From: Saccharolobus solfataricus
Lineage (GTDB): Archaea; Thermoproteota; Thermoprotei_A; Sulfolobales; Sulfolobaceae
Direction: 5' to 3'
NCBI RefSeq assembly: GCF_900079115.1
Contig: NZ_LT549890.1
Location: 2,040,001-2,072,000 of the forward strand
Length of the DNA stretch: 32,000 bases
Each line of letters starts with the position of its first letter. The stretch's first letter is position 1. The notes beneath the pieces are model-generated. The model saw only the letters and a list, made by a program, of their open reading frames with translations, did no database searches and had not been told where the DNA came from. The position numbers and the translations under genes are program-made. Positions 3,937 to 26,690 of this stretch are shown here, one piece after another.

Positions 3937-4902
3937 ATGCAAACCATACAAGTATCCAAAACGGAGCTGAAGTCCCTCGCTATAAATTTAGCAACAAACA
4001 ATATTAACGTTATCTCTCAAGATCTAGACCCGGAAATAGTGAAAGCAGCACCATCCTTGCTAACCGGAAACAGAGGAAAATACTACTTGAAGGTAGTAAG
4101 ACGAGGCGAGAAAGTAATTAGTAAAGGTCAGAGAACCTTCAAGTTCTACCCAATCTACAGAGAAGTAAAGGGAGAGATCAACGTAGTCGCTGTAGATGAG
4201 ACCGGATTAACCGTGGGAGAAAAGGAACAAGAAAAAGCAGAGGGCTTTCTACTCTACAACTGGAAGAGAAAAGGAGTAAAGATGAGATCCTTGGACCTCG
4301 TATATCCCTTAAGGTTACCCCTCCTAGTGGAGGTAGCAGATTTGAGAAGCGACAGTCCATCACAGTTCCTACTCAGGAGCGTGAGGGAAGTAAGCCAATA
4401 CATGGAAATAGATTACGTTGTAGCTGACGCCGGATTCTTGAACCTAGGGGTCATCAAGGAAATGCCCGTGAAGACCATTGTGAGAGGAAAGTCGAACTTG
4501 AAGGGATTCAAGGAACTATCTAACGTTCCATTAGTTGAGAAGAGATACGAGGTTAAGGACAAGGTTTACGTTGCGTATAGGGTCTTGGAATTTGAAGGGC
4601 TTTATTATTACGATGTGGTTTACGTTAAGGGAAAGCCGAGGCACTTCATGTTCGTAACGAACTTCGAGGGAGATCCCTATGAACTGGCTGAACTCTATAG
4701 GTTGAGGTGGCAGGTTGAGGAGGGTTTTAAGGTTAGGAAGGCAAGGATAAGGTATGTTAGGAAGTTGAGTAATAAGATCTTCTTGTTCCTCTATTATACG
4801 GTTCTGGATTCTGCGTGGAATCTAGTGAATCATCTTCTCTTTAACTTCAAGTCCACGTGTAAGAAGGTTTTGTCCTTCGATTCATTCGTCAAGCTTCTCT
4901 AA
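3937..4902 (+). CDS. IS4-family DDE transposase
   Basis: 321-aa ORF between the IRs. The C-terminal signature YRLRWQVEEGFKVRK fits the IS4-type Y-x2-R-x3-E-x6-K motif. Acidic candidates lie in VVAVDETG and VVADAGF. Confidence 0.9.
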   Translation: MQTIQVSKTELKSLAINLATNNINVISQDLDPEIVKAAPSLLTGNRGKYYLKVVRRGEKVISKGQRTFKFYPIYREVKGEINVVAVDETGLTVGEKEQEKAEGFLLYNWKRKGVKMRSLDLVYPLRLPLLVEVADLRSDSPSQFLLRSVREVSQYMEIDYVVADAGFLNLGVIKEMPVKTIVRGKSNLKGFKELSNVPLVEKRYEVKDKVYVAYRVLEFEGLYYYDVVYVKGKPRHFMFVTNFEGDPYELAELYRLRWQVEEGFKVRKARIRYVRKLSNKIFLFLYYTVLDSAWNLVNHLLFNFKSTCKKVLSFDSFVKLL

Positions 4903-5336: not shown

Positions 5337-5783
<447 letters not shown>

Positions 5784-5806
5784 AAAAGAGGAGAAAAAAG
5801 GTGAAA

Positions 5807-5813
5807 TTTTTTT
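5807..5813 (+). terminator. T7 run downstream of the pilin gene (candidate archaeal oligo-T terminator)
   Basis: ttttttt lies 24 nt after the stop at 5783. Oligo-T tracts act as terminators in Sulfolobus. Confidence 0.35.
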
Positions 5814-5898
5814 AATACAATCTTTCTAACTTTAGAGAAATTTTTAACCCTAATCCATATAAACATTATTATTTAAGCCTTTGCGAATACTAATATTT

Positions 5899-6264
5899 GT
5901 GGAATATCCATATTTTGACCTTGAAACCGCTAGAGAGTTATTACCATGGCTTAGAGATCGTTTAATACAATTGAGAAAGATAAAAAACGAAATTGAGCTT
6001 CTTTTGGTTAATGGTGATAAATATGCTTTACAACAATACGCAAGTGAGACTAAAAAAATTATTGACGAAATTATCTCTAAAGGTATTATACTACGAGATA
6101 TCGATATAGGCTTAGTGGATTTTCCAGCTATTATAAATAATAAGCCTGCATTCTTTTGCTGGAAAATAGACGAGAATGACATAGCGTATTGGCATTACAT
6201 GGACGAGGGATTTAGAGGGAGAAAGAGGTTAACTGGCTATGAGGATATTCTAAGTTTACGTTAA
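5899..6264 (+). CDS. DUF2203-like conserved hypothetical protein
   Basis: The track ORF starts at TTG 5881. I prefer GTG 5899 (MEYPYFDLETARELLPWLRDRL...) because the TATA-like ttattatttaag (5866-5876) is about 27 nt upstream. The N-terminal coiled-coil-like segment followed by GIILRDIDIGLVDFP...FFCWK...I.YWH resembles DUF2203 proteins as I recall them. Confidence 0.6.
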   Translation: MEYPYFDLETARELLPWLRDRLIQLRKIKNEIELLLVNGDKYALQQYASETKKIIDEIISKGIILRDIDIGLVDFPAIINNKPAFFCWKIDENDIAYWHYMDEGFRGRKRLTGYEDILSLR

Positions 6265-6296
6265 ATTTATTTATTTAATTCTCTTAACAATTCCCT

Positions 6297-8486
6297 ATGT
6301 ACGTTGGTCAAAGAGTAAAAAGGAAAGAGGATTTAAAGTTGATTACTGGTTCTGGGAGATATATTGACGATATTGAGTACCCCGGAACTTTGTACCTTTA
6401 CATCGTTAGGAGTAACGTGGCCCACGCTAAAATTAAATATATTGACGTTAGGGATGCGTTAAAAGTTAATGGTGTTGTCGGAGTTATAACTGGCTTGACA
6501 ATTCCTTTTGAGAACAGACCTAATAATTGGCCGATGGCTAAGGACGAGATTTTATATGTTGGTCATCCTATTGCGGCAATTTTAGCTACTGATAAGTATG
6601 TTGCTGCTGATGCGGCTGATTTGATTCAAGTGGATTATGAAGAGTTACCTGCAGTTATTAACCCAGAGAAGGCTTTAAAGGATGATGTTAAGGCTATTGA
6701 GGGTAGGAGTAATATTGCTTATAAGAAGACTTACAGTTCAGGTGACCCAGAGAAGGCTCTTTCAAATTCGGATATTGTATTAGAGGAGAAGTTTGAAATT
6801 TCAAGAGTTTATCCTTCACCGATGGAAACTAGAGGTTTACTTTCGGTATATCAAGAGGATAGTTTGCTAGTTTACGCCTCTACGCAATCCGCTCATTACA
6901 TGAGGAGGTATTTATTGTCAGCCTTTGGTAACAAGGTAAAGGATATAAGGGTTATTCAGGCTGATGTAGGAGGTGCTTTCGGAGCTAAGTTATTCCCATA
7001 TTCTGAGGATTTCATAACTGTTTACGCTAGTTTGCAATATAGGAGACCAGTAAAATGGGTTGCATTAAGGAGTGAAGATATAAGGGGTATGTATCATGGT
7101 AGAGGACAGATTCATAAGGTTAAGTTTGGAGCTAAAAGGGATGGTACTTTAACTGCAATAATAGATGATGCTATTATTGACTTAGGTGCTGCTTCTCATG
7201 GAACTTACTTAGTGGATATAGCAGCTACAATGTTACCTGGACCGTATAAAGTTAGGGATCTAAGGGTTAATGCTTATGGTGTTTACACTAATAAGACTCC
7301 TTTAGACCAGTATAGGGGAGCTGGTAGACCAGAGGCTGCTTTCGTTTATGAGAGGATAATGGATATTATCGCTGATGAGTTGAAATTGGACCCAATTTAC
7401 GTTAGAAAAAGGAATTTAATCACTGAATTACCTTATGTTAATCCTTTTGGGCTAAAATACGATTCCGGAAATTACCTAAAATTGTTAGAAAATGCTGAGA
7501 AGGTTTATAGGGAATTTGAGAAGAGGGCTAATGAGTTGAGGAAGCAAGGTAGGAGAGTTAGCGCTGGATTATCATTCTATTTGGAACAAAATAACTTTGG
7601 TCCTTGGGAGAGCGCTTCAGTTAGAATTAAGGCTGATGGCAAGGTTCAAGTTATAATAGGTGCTAGTCCACATGGTCAAGGTGCAGAAACTGGTATTGCT
7701 CAAATTGTTGCTGATGAGTTAGGGATAAGTGTAGACGACGTTGAAGTGATCTGGGGTGATACTGCTCTCATAGGTGAGGGTTTTGGTACTTACGGCAGTA
7801 GAAGTTTAACTTTAGCTGGTAATGCTGCGTTGTTAGCAGCTAGAAGAGTTAAGGATAAGGTTCTAAGGTTAGCTGCGCAATTCATGAAGTCCGATGTTCA
7901 AGAGTTACAGTATAAGGATGGTAAGGTAATTAATCCTAAGACTGGTAAGACAATGAGCCTAAAAGAAGTTGCCTCACGTAATATGGCTAGTCTAGGTGGT
8001 ATTTGGGAATATAAGGAGGAACCTGGGTTAGAGGCCACGGGTTATTTCGGATTTGATAATTTAACTTATCCCTATGGTTCACATGTTGTTTTAGCTGAGG
8101 TTGATAATTCCGGTAAGGTTAAGATTTTAGATTATTACGCTATCGATGATATAGGTACTGTTGTTAATCCAATGCTAGCTGAGGCTCAAGTTATAGGAGG
8201 AGTGATTCAAGGCTTTGGTGAGAGTGTTTTGGAAGAAATTGTGTACGATGAAAATGGCAATTTACTAACTGGAAATCTATTCGATTACGCAATACCTACT
8301 GCTGTTGAGGCATTTAATATTAAATGGGAGTACATGGAAGAGGGGAAATCCAATGCTCCTTTACCAGCTAAGGGAATTGGGGAGGGTGCAACTATTGGTA
8401 CTCCACCAGCGTTGATAAGGGCAATAGAAAAGGCAATAGGTAAGAGGTTGACCAGATTGCCGAGTAGGTTAGAGGATTTGCTATGA
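6297..8486 (+). CDS. Molybdopterin-binding hydroxylase large subunit (xanthine dehydrogenase / aldehyde oxidoreductase / CoxL-CutA family)
   Basis: 729 aa. The N-terminus MYVGQRVKRKEDLKLITGSGRYIDD is typical of the family. Also present: GGAFGAK, QYRGAGRPEA, GASPHGQG.ETG..Q, and the C-terminal GIGEGATIGTPPA. No medium (FAD) or small (2Fe-2S) subunit gene is adjacent. Confidence 0.9.
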   Translation: MYVGQRVKRKEDLKLITGSGRYIDDIEYPGTLYLYIVRSNVAHAKIKYIDVRDALKVNGVVGVITGLTIPFENRPNNWPMAKDEILYVGHPIAAILATDKYVAADAADLIQVDYEELPAVINPEKALKDDVKAIEGRSNIAYKKTYSSGDPEKALSNSDIVLEEKFEISRVYPSPMETRGLLSVYQEDSLLVYASTQSAHYMRRYLLSAFGNKVKDIRVIQADVGGAFGAKLFPYSEDFITVYASLQYRRPVKWVALRSEDIRGMYHGRGQIHKVKFGAKRDGTLTAIIDDAIIDLGAASHGTYLVDIAATMLPGPYKVRDLRVNAYGVYTNKTPLDQYRGAGRPEAAFVYERIMDIIADELKLDPIYVRKRNLITELPYVNPFGLKYDSGNYLKLLENAEKVYREFEKRANELRKQGRRVSAGLSFYLEQNNFGPWESASVRIKADGKVQVIIGASPHGQGAETGIAQIVADELGISVDDVEVIWGDTALIGEGFGTYGSRSLTLAGNAALLAARRVKDKVLRLAAQFMKSDVQELQYKDGKVINPKTGKTMSLKEVASRNMASLGGIWEYKEEPGLEATGYFGFDNLTYPYGSHVVLAEVDNSGKVKILDYYAIDDIGTVVNPMLAEAQVIGGVIQGFGESVLEEIVYDENGNLLTGNLFDYAIPTAVEAFNIKWEYMEEGKSNAPLPAKGIGEGATIGTPPALIRAIEKAIGKRLTRLPSRLEDLL

Positions 8487-9849: not shown

Positions 9850-11005
9850 TCCTGGCAGTTCAAGAGGCCCATAAAAACTTTTTAAAATTAGAACCTTTAA
9901 TTTTGGTATGACCAAAGAATTGACGAGGGAGGAGTACTATAAGGCATTGGAAAAGGCAGTTAACGAGGTCATACTATCCATGACTGGAACGAGGAAGGAC
10001 GTTGCCAAGAGGCTACTCTTGGGGGCGGTTGTGGGAAGAAATGCTACCGAGATAGCTCAAGAGGCCGAGATGGACTACGAGACCGTACTGAATAACTTGG
10101 ACAAGGCAGCTCAAGCCAAACTAATCGAGGTCGTGAAGAAGTTAGTCGGGGATCATCCTGTCCTTCTCATAGTGGACGACACCCACGACCACAAGCTCTA
10201 CGCTAGGGCCATGCCGGTCTCCAGAAACGGGGCGCAGATCTTCTACTGTAGGGCGCACAAGAGGTTCGAACCCGCGATCCAACTCCTTGTGATTGGCGTC
10301 AAGGATCTGGTGAACAACCAGATCTACGTGATCCACATAATTGCCTACATACCCCGAAAGGTGGAAGAGGAGCTCAAGCGTAGGGGTGAGGAGGTGAAGT
10401 TCAAGACCAAGATAGATGCCCTCTTGGAGTTTCTCTCCTCCCTCTCAGGTTTGAATGTAAAAGCTAGGGTCTTCGACTCATGGTACGTGAACTCGAGGAC
10501 TCTCCAAGGGAATACTGTGGGGGAACTCAAGTCCAGCGCGCGAGTCGTCGAGGGTGGCAGATCCGTGCCCGTTAGCGAGTTCCCCCAAGGGGAGTACCTG
10601 GTAGAGTACTTGGGGACTCCCATAAAGTTACTTGTTATAGATGACTATAAGGGTTACGGGAGGAGGTATTTCTTCTCCACCGACCTTAACGACACGGCTG
10701 AAGATATCATAACGACCTGGGAGAACCGTTGGGACATAGAGGTCTTGATCAGGGAGCTCAAGGCCTTGGGACTCGAGGGTGGGTCCTTCTTGACCTGGGT
10801 TAGGAACTCAGGCTTCGTGGCCTTGAAGGCTCTCTCCCTCCTCGTTGTTCAATACTTCAAGTACTCCACGGGTCTGATGCTCGGGGCCAAAAGGTTGGCC
10901 AGATTGATAAAAAGTATTTACCGTGAGGCGGGTGGGATCAAAAAACTGTTCAAGAGGAGGAGAAAACCGTAAAGTGCTATATGTTATTCAGTCTTGGCTG
11001 AATAT
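9850..11005 (+). mobile_element. ISC1217-like DDE-transposase insertion element; boundaries approximate
   Basis: A single 354-aa transposase ORF sits in a block visibly GC-richer than its flanks. A hairpin attcag/ctgaat (10986-10991 / 10998-11003) follows the stop. I could not identify convincing terminal inverted repeats or a target duplication. Confidence 0.5.
9908..10972 (+). CDS. DDE transposase (IS4/IS701-like; resembles the Sulfolobus ISC1217 transposase as recalled)
   Basis: Candidate DDE triad in LLIVDDTHD, ARVFDSWY and WENRWDIEVLIRELK (the W-x-IE-x5-LK motif of DDE_Tnp_1-type enzymes). The N-terminal segment is HTH-like. Confidence 0.9.
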   Translation: MTKELTREEYYKALEKAVNEVILSMTGTRKDVAKRLLLGAVVGRNATEIAQEAEMDYETVLNNLDKAAQAKLIEVVKKLVGDHPVLLIVDDTHDHKLYARAMPVSRNGAQIFYCRAHKRFEPAIQLLVIGVKDLVNNQIYVIHIIAYIPRKVEEELKRRGEEVKFKTKIDALLEFLSSLSGLNVKARVFDSWYVNSRTLQGNTVGELKSSARVVEGGRSVPVSEFPQGEYLVEYLGTPIKLLVIDDYKGYGRRYFFSTDLNDTAEDIITTWENRWDIEVLIRELKALGLEGGSFLTWVRNSGFVALKALSLLVVQYFKYSTGLMLGAKRLARLIKSIYREAGGIKKLFKRRRKP

Positions 11006-21730: not shown

Positions 21731-22111
21731 TCAAGGGTCTTCTATGCAGACTTCTTTTCCTTTCTTAAACTCTATGTGTAATATTTTTTGTAATTCTCTT
21801 CCTAAAAGCGAAATTTCCCTACCAAGAATAGGACTTTCAATAAGAGTGTCAAGTTTAATTTTACCAATCTTTATAATAGCCTTAGCAACTCTAGTTTTAA
21901 CAATTCCGTTAAGCGTTGCGTAAACTCTTGGATTCTCTAGCTCAAGGGAATTTACTTTATTGTAAACAGAAGGAGGGATTAAAAGATAACCGGAAAATCC
22001 AGTGTCAATTAATGCTCTAACTTCCATGAAATCCCCATTATAAGGATCTATTACGGTAACCGGTAAAGTAGGTTTATCATTTATTCTAAAGCAATCGAAG
22101 ACCATCCCCAA
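21731..22111 (-). CDS. Retropepsin-like clan AA aspartic protease (DTGF type, AF_0612-like family)
   Basis: A 126-aa protein with one catalytic motif, ALIDTGFSGYLLIP, so it would act as a homodimer. A later ILGREISLLG resembles the retropepsin flap/G-R-D/N region. Confidence 0.7.
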   Translation of the reverse strand: MGMVFDCFRINDKPTLPVTVIDPYNGDFMEVRALIDTGFSGYLLIPPSVYNKVNSLELENPRVYATLNGIVKTRVAKAIIKIGKIKLDTLIESPILGREISLLGRELQKILHIEFKKGKEVCIEDP

Positions 22112-22446
22112 TCTCCTATCTCTTGCTTATCGTAATTCTTACTACCTATCATACATTTCTTGTGCCCCTTCCCCTTTTCAACTGCCTCCTTTTCACTATC
22201 AAATGCACCTATATATTCTCCGTCACAAGCTAAAACATACTTTCCTTCATTATATGCATTTATTGCTTCAGGATTAGTCTTAAGTACGATGTAATTATAA
22301 TCACCTATTCCTTCGGTAACGTTGAGCCACAAAGAAATAGCCTGCTGTATTGCTTCAGAGACACTTATCCCTAATAGTGCAGCTCTAGCTTTTAACATCC
22401 TATAAAGCTGCTCGTCCATATTCTTTATCAGCACCTTTGTTGCCAT
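22081..22446 (-). CDS. Ribbon-helix-helix (CopG/Arc/antitoxin-like) protein with a C-terminal small alpha/beta domain
   Basis: The track ORF starts at 22503. I prefer Met20 (ATG 22446) because a TATA box tttattatattt (plus-strand 22464-22475) lies about 24 nt upstream. KVLIKNMDEQLYRMLKARAALLGISVSEAIQQAISLWL has the strand-helix-helix pattern. The C-terminal KYVLACDGEYIGAFDSEKEAVEKG resembles small archaeal antitoxin-associated domains. Overlaps the protease gene by 31 nt. Confidence 0.65.
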   Translation of the reverse strand: MATKVLIKNMDEQLYRMLKARAALLGISVSEAIQQAISLWLNVTEGIGDYNYIVLKTNPEAINAYNEGKYVLACDGEYIGAFDSEKEAVEKGKGHKKCMIGSKNYDKQEIGDWGWSSIALE

Positions 22447-23084
22447 ATGTTTAACTTGGTAAGAAATATAATAAAGTTTATCTTTAATACATGAGTCTGA
22501 CAAAAAGAACGATAAGCCTCGTCCCTTCTCGATAGATTAAAACTCACTATCTATATAATAACTTGACATAAGGATAAACGGAATTATAAAAGTAAATAAG
22601 AATATATCTATATTAAGGTAATTATTCAACTCAGACTCCAAGGAGAGGGAGAACTCACTTCCACGGGGAATCAACGCGAAACTAGAGAACGAATAAAACC
22701 AAGTATTATAAGAGAAAAGGAAATAAGCAAATAAGAGAAATATTAACATAAGCCCAGGCACTCCGAGGGGATAAAACCCCATTCAAGAGGCTAGCTGTAA
22801 AACCTCTAGAAAACAAGAGAGGATCAAACACCGAGTAGGAGGTTGTACCCAAACTACTCTAGGGGCTGAACATAGTTAATATTATGCAAGAAAAACAAGG
22901 TGTTATGACCACAAGGAATATATAGGGGTACATGATTGACACCCATAGATTCTCAATTCCCCCAGCTCTGTTAGAGGTGAAGCTTGTAGGGCCTCTTGAT
23001 ACATCAAGTAGACTTCAAAGCGTTAAAAAAGCAAATAGATATATTTCGAATTTATCTTGAGGCTTTTTGTAAAATTAAAACTAG

Positions 23085-23300
23085 TCAGATACTAAACTTG
23101 GCTTTAATATAATCGCCTTTTTCAGTTATCAATTCTATTATATGATCACCCTTTATAGGGGTAAAATCGTTTATTTCTATTGTTATATTTTTAACTCCAT
23201 AGGGTATGTATTCTGGATTATATCTATACGTCATCTTACCATCGATTCTAATTGCTACGATCTTACCTGAAACCTTATCAGTTTGCAACCAAACTTTCAT
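23085..23300 (-). CDS. Hypothetical small beta-rich protein (71 aa)
   Basis: An ORF with a TATA element about 28 nt upstream of its ATG. No recognisable motif. Confidence 0.5.
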   Translation of the reverse strand: MKVWLQTDKVSGKIVAIRIDGKMTYRYNPEYIPYGVKNITIEINDFTPIKGDHIIELITEKGDYIKAKFSI

Positions 23301-24848: not shown

Positions 24849-25516
24849 ATTAAAAATAGATCTAAGCCCCTTAGCTCTCCAACTAGTATTGGTTCTTCTT
24901 TTGTTATCCATTTTCTTGCCTTGACTTCTCTAAGAGCCTCTACCACTTCAACCCAATTCTCTATTTCTGGAATCTCATAAACTACGACGAACTCATAATC
25001 ACCTACTCCAAAAGAGTAAGTAGTATATGATCTAATTCCCTTGTTCTTTGGATGAGTTCGAGCAGTTTCAATATGTTCTTTCATGATTTTTTCCCTTTCT
25101 TCAAAAGGTAGAAGATACCATTCTACGTCTTTTTTCATGGGATATGCTACAAAATACCTTAAAGGCTCTAATGAGAGGACCTTATTAATGTCAAAATTTC
25201 CTCTTGTATATGGAGACGACCTATATACGGAAAACAAGGATAGTGATTCATAACCTAAATCCCTTATTTTAGAAAGTAAAGTATATTTAAATTCTAACAA
25301 TTTCGATGTATCGGAGGAAGTTACCCAATAAATAATATCACTATCATTCCTAAGAGATATGTATCTTTTTAGTGAAATTAGATTATTCCTAAACTGTGAT
25401 TCTACAGATTCTATCTCATTTATTGCGCTTCTTCTTTCCTCTCTACTACTACTCCACCATCTATTTGTAAGCTTTATCGAGGAAATATAAAAGTATGCTA
25501 AACTATTTTGGCTCAT
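24845..25516 (-). CDS. Chlorite dismutase-family protein (Cld / HemQ-ChdC-like)
   Basis: EREKIMKEHIETARTH...IRSYTTYSFGVGDYEFVVVYE...W.EVVEALREVKARKW follows the family pattern around the proximal histidine. It is 223 aa. Confidence 0.8.
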   Translation of the reverse strand: MSQNSLAYFYISSIKLTNRWWSSSREERRSAINEIESVESQFRNNLISLKRYISLRNDSDIIYWVTSSDTSKLLEFKYTLLSKIRDLGYESLSLFSVYRSSPYTRGNFDINKVLSLEPLRYFVAYPMKKDVEWYLLPFEEREKIMKEHIETARTHPKNKGIRSYTTYSFGVGDYEFVVVYEIPEIENWVEVVEALREVKARKWITKEEPILVGELRGLDLFLI

Positions 25517-26690
25517 TATCCTCTAAGTCTTGAATAATGTCATTATACAATATTAATACTTCTTCCAAATTTGCCAAATAAGCTATGAAGTTGTTGGATA
25601 AATTCTGTCTAACATATTCGTCAAGTAAATCTAATCCATCCGCTGTAGGACCATTTATTATTCTTTCAACATACTCTTCAAATTTTTTCTTTGAATCAGC
25701 AAGTATTATAAAAGCAATAGGTATGATACTTAATATATCCTTGGATGTGAAATTGACGTCCTTTACTACATCAGAGCTAACTCCGCTATAGTGAATAGAA
25801 CTTAATCCATGTTTCTTAGTTACTTTACTTTCGACCTTATTTTTTAACTTATCTATAGATAAAGGTAGGTAAGAAATAGGAGACGGATTGCCAATAATAA
25901 CATCTACTCCAATATTATTGGAAATTCTATCCAAGTACATTATTGCCCTAAGCAATCTGGCTAATTTGTGTTTTTTAACCGAGCTAGGCTTCTTTCCTAC
26001 GTTAAACCCTATAAGGTATTTGAAGATACATCCCGCGTAAATAGTTTTACCATTTTGTATAGGATTTTCAGCTGGTAATAGATTATATTCTACAAACTCC
26101 CTATAAATCAAAGTATATTCCTCCTCGTTTATCAAAGACTTTAAGTAGTCTTCGAAGTTCTCTATGTTTTCTCTCCTCGATTCAACAACTTGGCCCAACT
26201 CGTTGTATTTCTTAATTATCGGAGGATTATACGACATGTCAATAAATATTTGAAGAATAGGAAAGGAATCTTCACTCCTTAATACAGTGGCTGCGTAAGC
26301 ATTGTTAGGAAATCTAACAACACCCACTATTACTCTAGAATTGACATCGCTAGATAACGCTACATGTTTTGAAGAAGCTAAGGCTAATCTTTCCATATCA
26401 AACCATTCTTTACTTAATCGTAGAGTCTCTGAATTAGTATCAATATTTCCGTAATTGTAAACTATTGAATCTACCTTTAATTCCTCCGCTACTTCCTCTA
26501 TTACGTCCTTAATGAGAGAATCTATTTGGGGAATTGGTGGTAAAATATAGTGCTCCTCAGTCTTATATATATGGACGCCATTATCTTGTAGTTTTATTAA
26601 CATTATCTCCTTTCTATTACCCTTGTCGTCAATTAGAGAGCATAGAATCTCTGGTTTTTCAGGGTTTGAGTATACTTCTAATAGTCCCAC
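25503..26690 (-). CDS. Hypothetical 395-aa protein, no recognisable motif; translationally coupled to the Cld-family gene
   Basis: A long ORF with a GTG start. Its 3' end overlaps the downstream start by 14 nt. I found no Walker, metal-binding or other known signature. Confidence 0.7.
   Translation of the reverse strand: MGLLEVYSNPEKPEILCSLIDDKGNRKEIMLIKLQDNGVHIYKTEEHYILPPIPQIDSLIKDVIEEVAEELKVDSIVYNYGNIDTNSETLRLSKEWFDMERLALASSKHVALSSDVNSRVIVGVVRFPNNAYAATVLRSEDSFPILQIFIDMSYNPPIIKKYNELGQVVESRRENIENFEDYLKSLINEEEYTLIYREFVEYNLLPAENPIQNGKTIYAGCIFKYLIGFNVGKKPSSVKKHKLARLLRAIMYLDRISNNIGVDVIIGNPSPISYLPLSIDKLKNKVESKVTKKHGLSSIHYSGVSSDVVKDVNFTSKDILSIIPIAFIILADSKKKFEEYVERIINGPTADGLDLLDEYVRQNLSNNFIAYLANLEEVLILYNDIIQDLEDNEPK

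Follow-up and report, generated by a model that had tools for sequence, protein, structure and literature searches.

A DUF5678-like protein and a retropepsin-like protease encoded by overlapping genes in Saccharolobus solfataricus form a candidate toxin-antitoxin-like operon

What does a small aspartic protease of the retropepsin type do in an archaeon, and why does its gene overlap that of a small protein with a predicted ribbon-helix-helix (RHH) domain? The two open reading frames (ORFs) that raise this question lie on the minus strand of a 32,000-nt stretch of Saccharolobus solfataricus DNA (NZ_LT549890.1 positions 2,040,001 to 2,072,000), here called the window; coordinates refer to the window unless a locus is named (Table 1). 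Catalogued in 2009, the free-standing prokaryotic retropepsin-like proteases (COG5550 / TIGR03698) have, as far as we know, gone without an assigned role since then, and DUF5678, which the core of the partner protein resembles, is a domain of unknown function. In our best-supported reading, the pair is a self-contained operon that moves horizontally and functions like a type II toxin-antitoxin or addiction module, its effector being the presumably homodimeric protease; we give this reading a probability of roughly 45%. It fits the gene architecture, the strict pairing, the subtype-specific tails of the partner, the mobility of the pair, the toxin-antitoxin neighbourhoods and the asymmetry of gene decay. 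A first-pass annotation of the window had suggested an operon of this kind from the two ORFs, both of which are present. Gene order, architecture, neighbourhood, mobility and decay agree with that suggestion, whereas bacterial partners lacking an RHH domain do not.

The pairing was followed in 66 loci that scans of genomes (6 loci) and of metagenomes had retrieved with the protease motif as seed. Upstream sequence was available for 65 of these protease loci, corresponding to 40 clusters at 80% partner identity, and in every one the directly upstream co-directional ORF was a partner homologue. At most loci the two genes overlap or abut, and at a few a short gap parts them; the overlap measures 21–47 nt in most archaeal homologues, a few others having the gap instead, and is a 4-nt ATGA overlap in the bacterial ones. 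The paired loci span Sulfolobales, Bathyarchaeia, cyanobacteria, Armatimonadota, Gammaproteobacteria and Nostocales plasmids, with Sulfolobaceae, Bathyarchaeia, Stenomitos (a cyanobacterium), Chthonomonadaceae and Pseudohongiella among the host names. With 65 of 65 loci carrying the upstream partner, the pairing is far beyond chance, and it extends well outside close relatives, to archaea, bacteria and plasmids. Look-ups seeded on the partner led to a protease gene in 7 of the 7 cases with downstream sequence, and the same overlapping pair was present in Metallosphaera hakonensis and Sulfolobales HS-7. Plasmids of Nostoc, Tolypothrix and Trichormus carry the protease. On pCC7120alpha and on Tolypothrix PCC 7712 plasmid unnamed2 the gene overlapping it by 4 nt matched the bacterial partner profile, and a bacterial protease relative scored 60.5 bits against TIGR03698, above the cut-off. 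The protease family, which had been placed in archaea, therefore also occurs on cyanobacterial conjugative plasmids.

The partners fell into three types that differ in both their N-terminal regions and their tails. Type A, in Sulfolobales and Bathyarchaeia-like loci, combines an RHH domain, a DUF5678 region and a GEWxWxSI tail. Type A6 has an RHH domain of the MGVITLKIDD type and an RLGLRTR tail. The bacterial type B has an N-terminal helix (PRYSKEEFARRG.ELYE) in place of the RHH domain, followed by a GKIVAIDIETG core and a WVIRIGH..FG tail. Each partner type has its own tail and goes with its own protease subgroup, which suggests that partner and protease have co-evolved. The bacterial partner had no match in Pfam, NCBIfam or PADLOC; its core aligned with the archaeal DUF5678 region in hhalign with an E-value of 1e-4 and a probability of 58%. 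Because the bacterial partners lack an RHH domain, the conserved unit is a DUF5678-like protein plus the protease, and the RHH domain is an archaeal, lineage-specific addition. The earlier idea of an RHH protein and a protease as the conserved pair thus has to be recast as a partnership between the DUF5678-like protein and the protease.

The two genes decay unequally. Among non-redundant lineages, the protease was broken with the partner intact in 9, the reverse was found in 1, and both were broken in 2 (9 versus 1, binomial p = 0.02). Loci had to carry the protease motif to be retrieved, so that any search bias runs against this result. An inactivated protease was present in about a quarter of the non-redundant loci, and the lesions were of several kinds. 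In Acidianus brierleyi (L001:4302-7051) the protease is split into two pieces, 4302-4478 and 6944-7051, by an insertion that carries an IS605 OrfB/TnpB gene (5742-6938), and the partner is intact. The protease is truncated beside an intact partner in L024-L028, L078, L062 and L065, and frameshifted beside an intact partner in L009, L066 and L068. Two unrelated bacterial loci carry in-frame nonsense codons in the protease gene (CAA>TAA in L059:1037-1489; TGG>TGA in L067:145-675), the remaining frame and the partner being intact.

The N-terminal part of the partner is predicted to be an RHH domain. Two Pfam families came close to their thresholds, FitA-like_RHH with 22 bits (cut-off 27) and RHH_1 with 20.0 bits (cut-off 20.5), and one relative (P0010) passed RHH_1 with 22.7 bits. 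An AlphaFold2 (AF2) model of the partner, with a predicted local distance difference test score (pLDDT) of 79, begins with an extended segment, followed by RHH helices 12–25 and 29–45. The top Foldseek matches of this model in the PDB were RHH repressors and antitoxins, namely SvtR, FitA, CopG, CdbA, PutA and VapB, with probabilities up to 0.95 (0.85–0.95 for SvtR, FitA, CopG and CdbA) and template modelling (TM) scores of 0.55–0.75 relative to the target. PDB profile matches that bear on the RHH domain, to AvtR, E73 and ParG, were weak (E 0.04–0.9). The N-terminal RHH pattern read from the sequence at the outset is thus upheld by structure prediction, with Pfam scores just short of threshold.

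The remainder of the partner consists of a compact core and a tail. Residues 70–102 form a beta-beta-alpha-beta unit modelled at a pLDDT of ~90, for which Foldseek found no convincing fold match in the PDB, and the pLDDT falls below 50 over tail residues 107–121. Neither the window partner nor its C-terminal 69 residues matched the DUF5678 family (PF18929), even at E 10, and a Bathyarchaeia homologue passed it with 26.1 bits (cut-off 23.2). A search with a full-length profile returned 67 relatives, 58 of which were aligned. Of these, 23 matched PF18929 (best E-value 2.7e-9), 17 the FitA-like RHH family and 10 RHH_1, and the PF18929-matched stretch aligned to residues 61–94 of the window partner. 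The guess that the C-terminal domain corresponds to DUF5678 therefore holds for the family, and fails as a direct Pfam match of the window protein; we assign the core to DUF5678 at the profile level only. The GEWxWxSI tail motif is common to the window partner and the Bathyarchaeia-type partners. We presume that the DUF5678-like core is the protease-binding domain, and propose that the disordered tail contacts or blocks the protease.

The downstream protein is, as first described, a DTGF-type protease of clan AA with a single ALIDTGFSG motif. It scored 110.1 bits against NCBIfam TIGR03698 (clan_AA_DTGF; cut-off 57.35), with weak Asp_protease_2 and gag-asp_proteas matches in Pfam; one paper calls COG5550 a little-known family (PMC2642776). 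Across 34 diverse aligned relatives the catalytic D-T-G is invariant, and G67, L100 and G102, the last two within the G-R motif of retropepsins, are nearly so. The catalytic motif is intact and under purifying selection. All matches in a PDB profile search were weak and all were retropepsins, from Rous sarcoma virus (RSV), ApRick, Ddi1 and HIV-1, the RSV alignment spanning the LLGRE motif. The AF2 model, of moderate confidence (pLDDT 72), had the protease of equine infectious anaemia virus (EIAV) as its top match (probability 1.00, TM 0.57/0.65), followed by the RVP domain of Ddi1 and the foamy virus (SFV) protease. At ~120 residues the protease is expected to act as a homodimer. In retropepsins the N- and C-terminal strands form the dimer interface. 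Each of 11 archaeal-type proteases has a cysteine in both of these strands, C5 in the N-terminal and C120 in the C-terminal one, and the two may form a disulfide or a metal site in these thermophile enzymes.

The start codons bear on how the two genes are expressed. All partner homologues begin at the methionine equivalent to ATG 22446 (MTTKVL...), and the extension that would result from an alternative upstream start, TTG-22503, contains the conserved promoter block described below; for both reasons we place the partner start at ATG 22446, as in the first-pass annotation. That annotation gave the protease 126 residues and a 31-nt overlap with the partner gene, which corresponds to a start at TTG-22111. 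Such a start is possible and less likely. The orthologue in S. islandicus L.S.2.15 (P0013), 98% identical to the window protease, is annotated with 124 residues, and a Shine-Dalgarno (SD)-like GGAGAT ends 5 nt before ATG 22105, so that ATG 22105 is most likely the start, giving 124 residues and an overlap of 25 nt. This layout, an SD-like element together with the gene overlap, suggests that translation of the protease is coupled to that of the partner gene.

Upstream of the partner lies a 19-nt block, AAAGATAAACTTTATTATA, which was identical in 21 loci (Saccharolobus-, Metallosphaera- and other Sulfolobaceae-type copies). It stands always ~20 nt upstream of the partner ATG, in front of proteins that are 67–72% identical, and the flanks further upstream are unrelated. 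The block combines a TATA-like TTTATTATA with a purine-rich stretch at the position of a B recognition element (BRE). The TATA-like element lies ~25 nt upstream of the ATG, close to the ~24 nt first estimated. This spacing implies a leaderless transcript that would start at or near ATG 22446. Within the block, TAAAG-N5-CTTTA forms a short symmetry and TAAAG/TAAAC a direct repeat; the HS-7 copy has a tandem TAGTTTAAC repeat instead. These elements may be RHH operators; the 5-nt TAAAG/CTTTA symmetry of the block was below the threshold of a repeat finder, which left it unreported. The 19-mer occurs once in the window and once in each locus. In a set of near-identical contigs (L007, L029-L033) both genes are frameshifted and the 19-nt block is still exact. 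One of these contigs is labelled as a metagenome-assembled genome of Methanobacteriota; its sequence is Sulfolobales-like, and the label may be a binning error.

The pair stands among unrelated genes, with HIT downstream and ~580 nt upstream (22504-23084) free of credible ORFs, as noted at the outset. This upstream stretch, which separates the pair from a 71-residue ORF, contains only unsupported short ORFs of at most 81 residues. It has an AT skew of +0.25 to +0.40, being T-rich on the minus strand, and a locally raised GC content. A search of Rfam returned nothing for it, its RNA fold was not significant (z = -1.6), and it showed no similarity to phages. The 71-residue ORF itself (23085-23300, minus strand) is conserved, has no Pfam match and contains SGKIVAIRIDGK, which resembles the GK-h-VAI-D-G pattern of the partner core. 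Homology between the two was considered and set aside, as the hhalign probability was 9%; we take the resemblance to be chance. Elsewhere in the window, the ORFs at 9908-10972 and 25503-26690 are what we take to be an ISC1217-type DDE transposase and an IS605 OrfB/TnpB protein (Cas12f1-like TNB), the Pfam matches having been assigned to ORFs by size only.

The genomic context of the pair differs in each Sulfolobales genus (Table 1), and one copy shares with the window only positions 22492-21975, from the promoter to the middle of the protease gene, in surrounding DNA that is unrelated. In a Pfam scan of ORFs within 650 bp of the pair at 26 loci, the recurrent families were all of the toxin-antitoxin kind: PIN at 4 loci, MazE/AbrB at 3, DUF5615 at 2, DUF433 at 2 and TumE at 1. 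A VapB-like gene and a PIN (VapC) gene lie directly downstream on the same strand in four lineages. They could mark a toxin-antitoxin island, or a functional four-gene arrangement in which the protease acts on VapB. ParDE adjoins the pair on pCC7120alpha, and MNT/HEPN genes are nearby in L073. In three further loci (L082:2462-13215, and likewise L083 and L084) the pair is part of a type III CRISPR-Cas cassette. The copy at L082:10001-10716, whose partner is 85% and whose protease 79–80% identical to those of the window, is divergent from the type III operon (five RAMP genes and a 774-aa Cas10-like gene) and lies upstream of cas6.

Table 1. Features of the gene pair in the window and surroundings of related copies
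Feature	Coordinates	Strand	Description
Partner gene (ORF1)	22081..22446	-	ATG 22446, TAA stop 22083-22081; 121 aa + stop
Retropepsin-like aspartic protease gene (ORF2)	21731..22105	-	Probable start ATG 22105, TGA stop 21733-21731; 124 aa + stop; family TIGR03698 / COG5550
Gene junction	22081..22116	-	SD-like GGAGAT 22116-22111; protease ATG 22105-22103; 25-nt overlap with partner 3' end
Predicted RHH domain, partner residues 1-45	22312..22446	-	Beta-strand KVLIKNM, helix 12-25, G26-I-S28 turn, helix 29-45
DUF5678-like core, partner residues 67-102 (GKYVLACDGEYIGAFDSEKEAVEKG...)	22141..22248	-	Beta-beta-alpha-beta; preceded by helices 50-66
C-terminal tail, partner residues 103-121	22084..22140	-	End GDWGWSSIALE; predicted disordered in isolation
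Catalytic D34-T35-G36 within ALIDTGFSG	21998..22006	-	Invariant in 34 diverse family members
Putative flap glycine G67	21905-21907	-	Nearly invariant
LLGRE motif, protease residues 100-104	21794..21808	-	Equivalent of the retropepsin I-I-G-R-N helix-start motif
Promoter block AAAGATAAACTTTATTATA (19 nt)	22467..22485	-	Read as BRE + TATA; TATA-like TTTATTATA at 22467-22475
VapB-like + PIN genes downstream of the pair	L002:4860-5478; L008:3491-4215; L072:4844-5531; L080:3917-4584
Surroundings, window and S. islandicus L.S.2.15			HIT and FAD/Fe-S oxidase
Surroundings, M. hakonensis			Metallo-beta-lactamase and VapBC
Surroundings, Sulfolobales HS-7			AAA_14 and glycosyltransferase
Surroundings, A. 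brierleyi			PIN, MazE and CcdA genes
Surroundings, L082-L084			Between type III CRISPR-Cas effector operon and cas6

Taken with type II toxin-antitoxin systems that have RHH antitoxins (FitAB, RHH VapBC, ParDE, CcdAB), the pair has a good deal in common. Its two small genes are adjacent and co-directional, the antitoxin-like gene comes first in an overlapping bicistron, and the two form a conserved and mobile unit. The domain order of the partner, an N-terminal RHH and a C-terminal, presumed partner-binding region with a disordered tail, is alike, and so are the toxin-antitoxin neighbours, the occurrence on plasmids and in variable chromosomal contexts, and the preferential decay of the downstream gene. 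The differences are that the downstream product in the window is a clan AA aspartic protease, which was not found as a toxin in the searched literature; that the window partner has an extra folded, DUF5678-like domain; and that the bacterial versions lack a DNA-binding domain. Type II systems are defined by a toxicity that is neutralised by binding, and the pair is known here from sequences and models; we do not yet file it among them. The searched literature, which is incomplete, contained no characterisation of the pair and linked no retropepsin or aspartyl protease to antitoxins, toxin-antitoxin systems or DUF5678.

A small protease encoded beside a small DNA-binding protein, in mobile or defence contexts and possibly acting on that partner, is also found in ImmA/ImmR (COG2856-Xre) and RosmerTA. 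ImmA is an HEXXH zinc metalloprotease and ImmR an Xre helix-turn-helix protein, whereas the window pair consists of an aspartic DTG enzyme and an RHH/DUF5678 protein. Gene order and fusions also differ from those of the window-type pair, whose bacterial partners have no recognisable DNA-binding domain. Because both the protease class and the repressor class differ, we regard the pair as distinct from an ImmA/ImmR module and the resemblance as one of functional analogy only. The protease itself has the DTG, flap glycine, GR motif and retroviral-like fold of COG5550 / TIGR03698 AF_0612, COG3577 / TIGR02281, ApRick, the Pseudomonas aeruginosa Rlo proteases and the Ddi1 RVP domain. The characterised bacterial retropepsin-like proteases are, however, anchored in the membrane or secreted and lack an upstream partner of their own, whereas the window protease is cytoplasmic and strictly paired. 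PADLOC had no model that matched the partner, and its matches to the protease were weak only.

In the toxin-antitoxin-like operon that we propose, a leaderless transcript would start at ATG 22446, and the protease would be translated by coupling from the partner gene. The partner would dimerise through its N-terminal RHH and, in archaea, repress its own BRE/TATA promoter. Its DUF5678-like core and disordered tail would bind the protease and hold it inactive. If the partner were lost or titrated, because of stress or infection or because the element itself was lost, the protease would cut proteins of the cell or of an invader, and the cell would bear a cost. The binding of partner and protease, the inhibition by the tail, the autorepression, the toxicity and the substrates all belong to this proposal.

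Several observations weigh against such an operon. Bacterial partners without a recognisable DNA-binding domain would be unusual as type II antitoxins. The archaeal protease had no match in a plasmid collection, and a phage collection and viral contigs gave no protease matches. The window copy appears to be stably inherited, as it is surrounded in the window by housekeeping genes and a few insertion sequence (IS) elements, and the window aligns with S. islandicus L.S.2.15 at 95% identity over 10.4 kb with the gene order kept. The toxin-antitoxin genes around other copies could reflect residence in an island, with no shared function. The type A tail may owe part of its conservation to dual coding, since its tryptophan codons overlap the region of the protease ATG. 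In L079 the partner is broken and the protease intact, on a contig that may carry indel errors. Lastly, the sampled proteases were limited to those carrying IDTGFSG[YF], which bounds what the sample can represent.

Some of these points favour other explanations. The pair might be a protease-gated transcription switch of the ImmA/ImmR or CalpL/CalpT kind, in which a signal leads the protease to cleave the RHH-DUF5678 repressor and so derepresses the operon, with or without other targets. This was raised in the first-pass annotation, and we retain it as a serious rival, though an unlikely one, and think it no more than a modest chance that the protease is a signal transducer in such a switch, not a toxin. 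In its favour, the partner has a poorly conserved linker of lower model confidence (residues ~42–50) between the RHH and the C-terminal domain, and the promoter block is kept unchanged across loci. COG2856-Xre modules offer a precedent (PMC2701414; PMC10440598), and one close orthologue belongs to a type III CRISPR-Cas cassette, a setting with known protease-regulator relays. However, bacterial partners that have no DNA-binding domain are just as strictly paired, so that repressor cleavage cannot be the conserved core function, which weakens the switch as the ancestral role. A single 19-mer per window and per locus also leaves no regulon visible, neither protein has a recognisable sensor domain, and if the two parts were useless alone, one would not expect the protease to be lost so often beside a retained partner. 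We likewise doubt that the two proteins are a dedicated, non-toxic pair with a housekeeping or stress role, in which the partner would help the protease to fold or dimerise, as a trans-acting pro-segment or chaperone, or would be its substrate, from which, for example, an aromatic C-terminal peptide is released. Strict co-occurrence and translational coupling would suit such a pair, as would tails that are conserved within each subtype, including subtypes whose genes do not overlap, and a window copy that is syntenic between strains among housekeeping genes; other bacterial retropepsin-like enzymes are reported to have physiological roles (bioRxiv 10.1101/2025.03.18.643919). A needed housekeeping role, on the other hand, accords poorly with inactivation of the protease in so large a share of loci, and with a patchy distribution, contexts that differ per genus, plasmids and repeated toxin-antitoxin surroundings; nor is it obvious why a chaperone or substrate should carry an RHH domain.

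The copies in L082-L084 bring up another origin, as an accessory module of type III CRISPR-Cas systems in Sulfolobales from which the window copy would be a detached or orphan version. Their location, with an orthologous pair between effector operon and cas6, agrees with what Vestergaard et al. reported in 2014 for Sulfolobales, where a retropepsin-like gene accompanies type III cassettes as an accessory. They described a ~100-aa retropepsin-like "Asp_prot" in type III-D/VIII-1 cassettes and mentioned no DUF5678/RHH partner (PMC3973734), so that the type III link of a Sulfolobales retropepsin-like protease was already noted then. The window protease resembles this protein (Saci_1895; PADLOC PEPT_D) as a small retropepsin-like enzyme and matches PEPT_D, but weakly (20.6 bits, E 1e-4), which points to a different subfamily. 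Against this origin, too, the window copy and most relatives are not cas-linked: the 32-kb window is free of cas genes, as are the surroundings of the copies in S. islandicus, M. hakonensis, A. brierleyi, HS-7, Bathyarchaeia and bacteria, and toxin-antitoxin pairs are common beside Sulfolobales CRISPR loci in any case (PMC3973734). We consider this origin very improbable. A fusion of partner and protease by a Gag-Pro-like -1 ribosomal frameshift in the overlap, with self-excision of the protease, is more improbable still. The window protease is in the -1 frame relative to the partner, with that frame open for 7 codons upstream of its ATG, and most loci have the same frame relation. The relation nevertheless varies among loci (+1, 0, -1), and in some pairs the overlap is absent or amounts to ATGA; on these grounds the frameshift fusion was rejected. 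The overlap also has no slippery heptamer, and the SD-like GGAGAT precedes the ATG.

The toxin-antitoxin-like operon may represent more than a single locus. It is possible, though in our view distinctly short of an even bet, that TIGR03698/COG5550 proteases with DUF5678-like partners form a widespread, unrecognised family of toxin-antitoxin or abortive-defence systems of both bacteria and archaea, in which the tail of the partner occupies the substrate cleft or the dimer interface. To our knowledge, archaea lack ClpP. The recurrent downstream VapBC genes and the type III CRISPR link lead us to speculate that the protease degrades antitoxins or regulators in such organisms.

If the toxin-antitoxin-like reading is true, the protease would be the first aspartic-protease toxin and thus a new enzymatic class of toxin, and the pair would be a free-standing cellular counterpart of the retroviral way of holding a retropepsin inactive until its release. 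It would then offer a simple system for how a retropepsin dimer stays inactive. The pair may also explain the accessory genes for an "Asp protease" that accompany type III CRISPR-Cas loci in Sulfolobales. A strict operon that reaches from Sulfolobales to cyanobacterial plasmids gives COG5550/TIGR03698 and DUF5678 a testable function.

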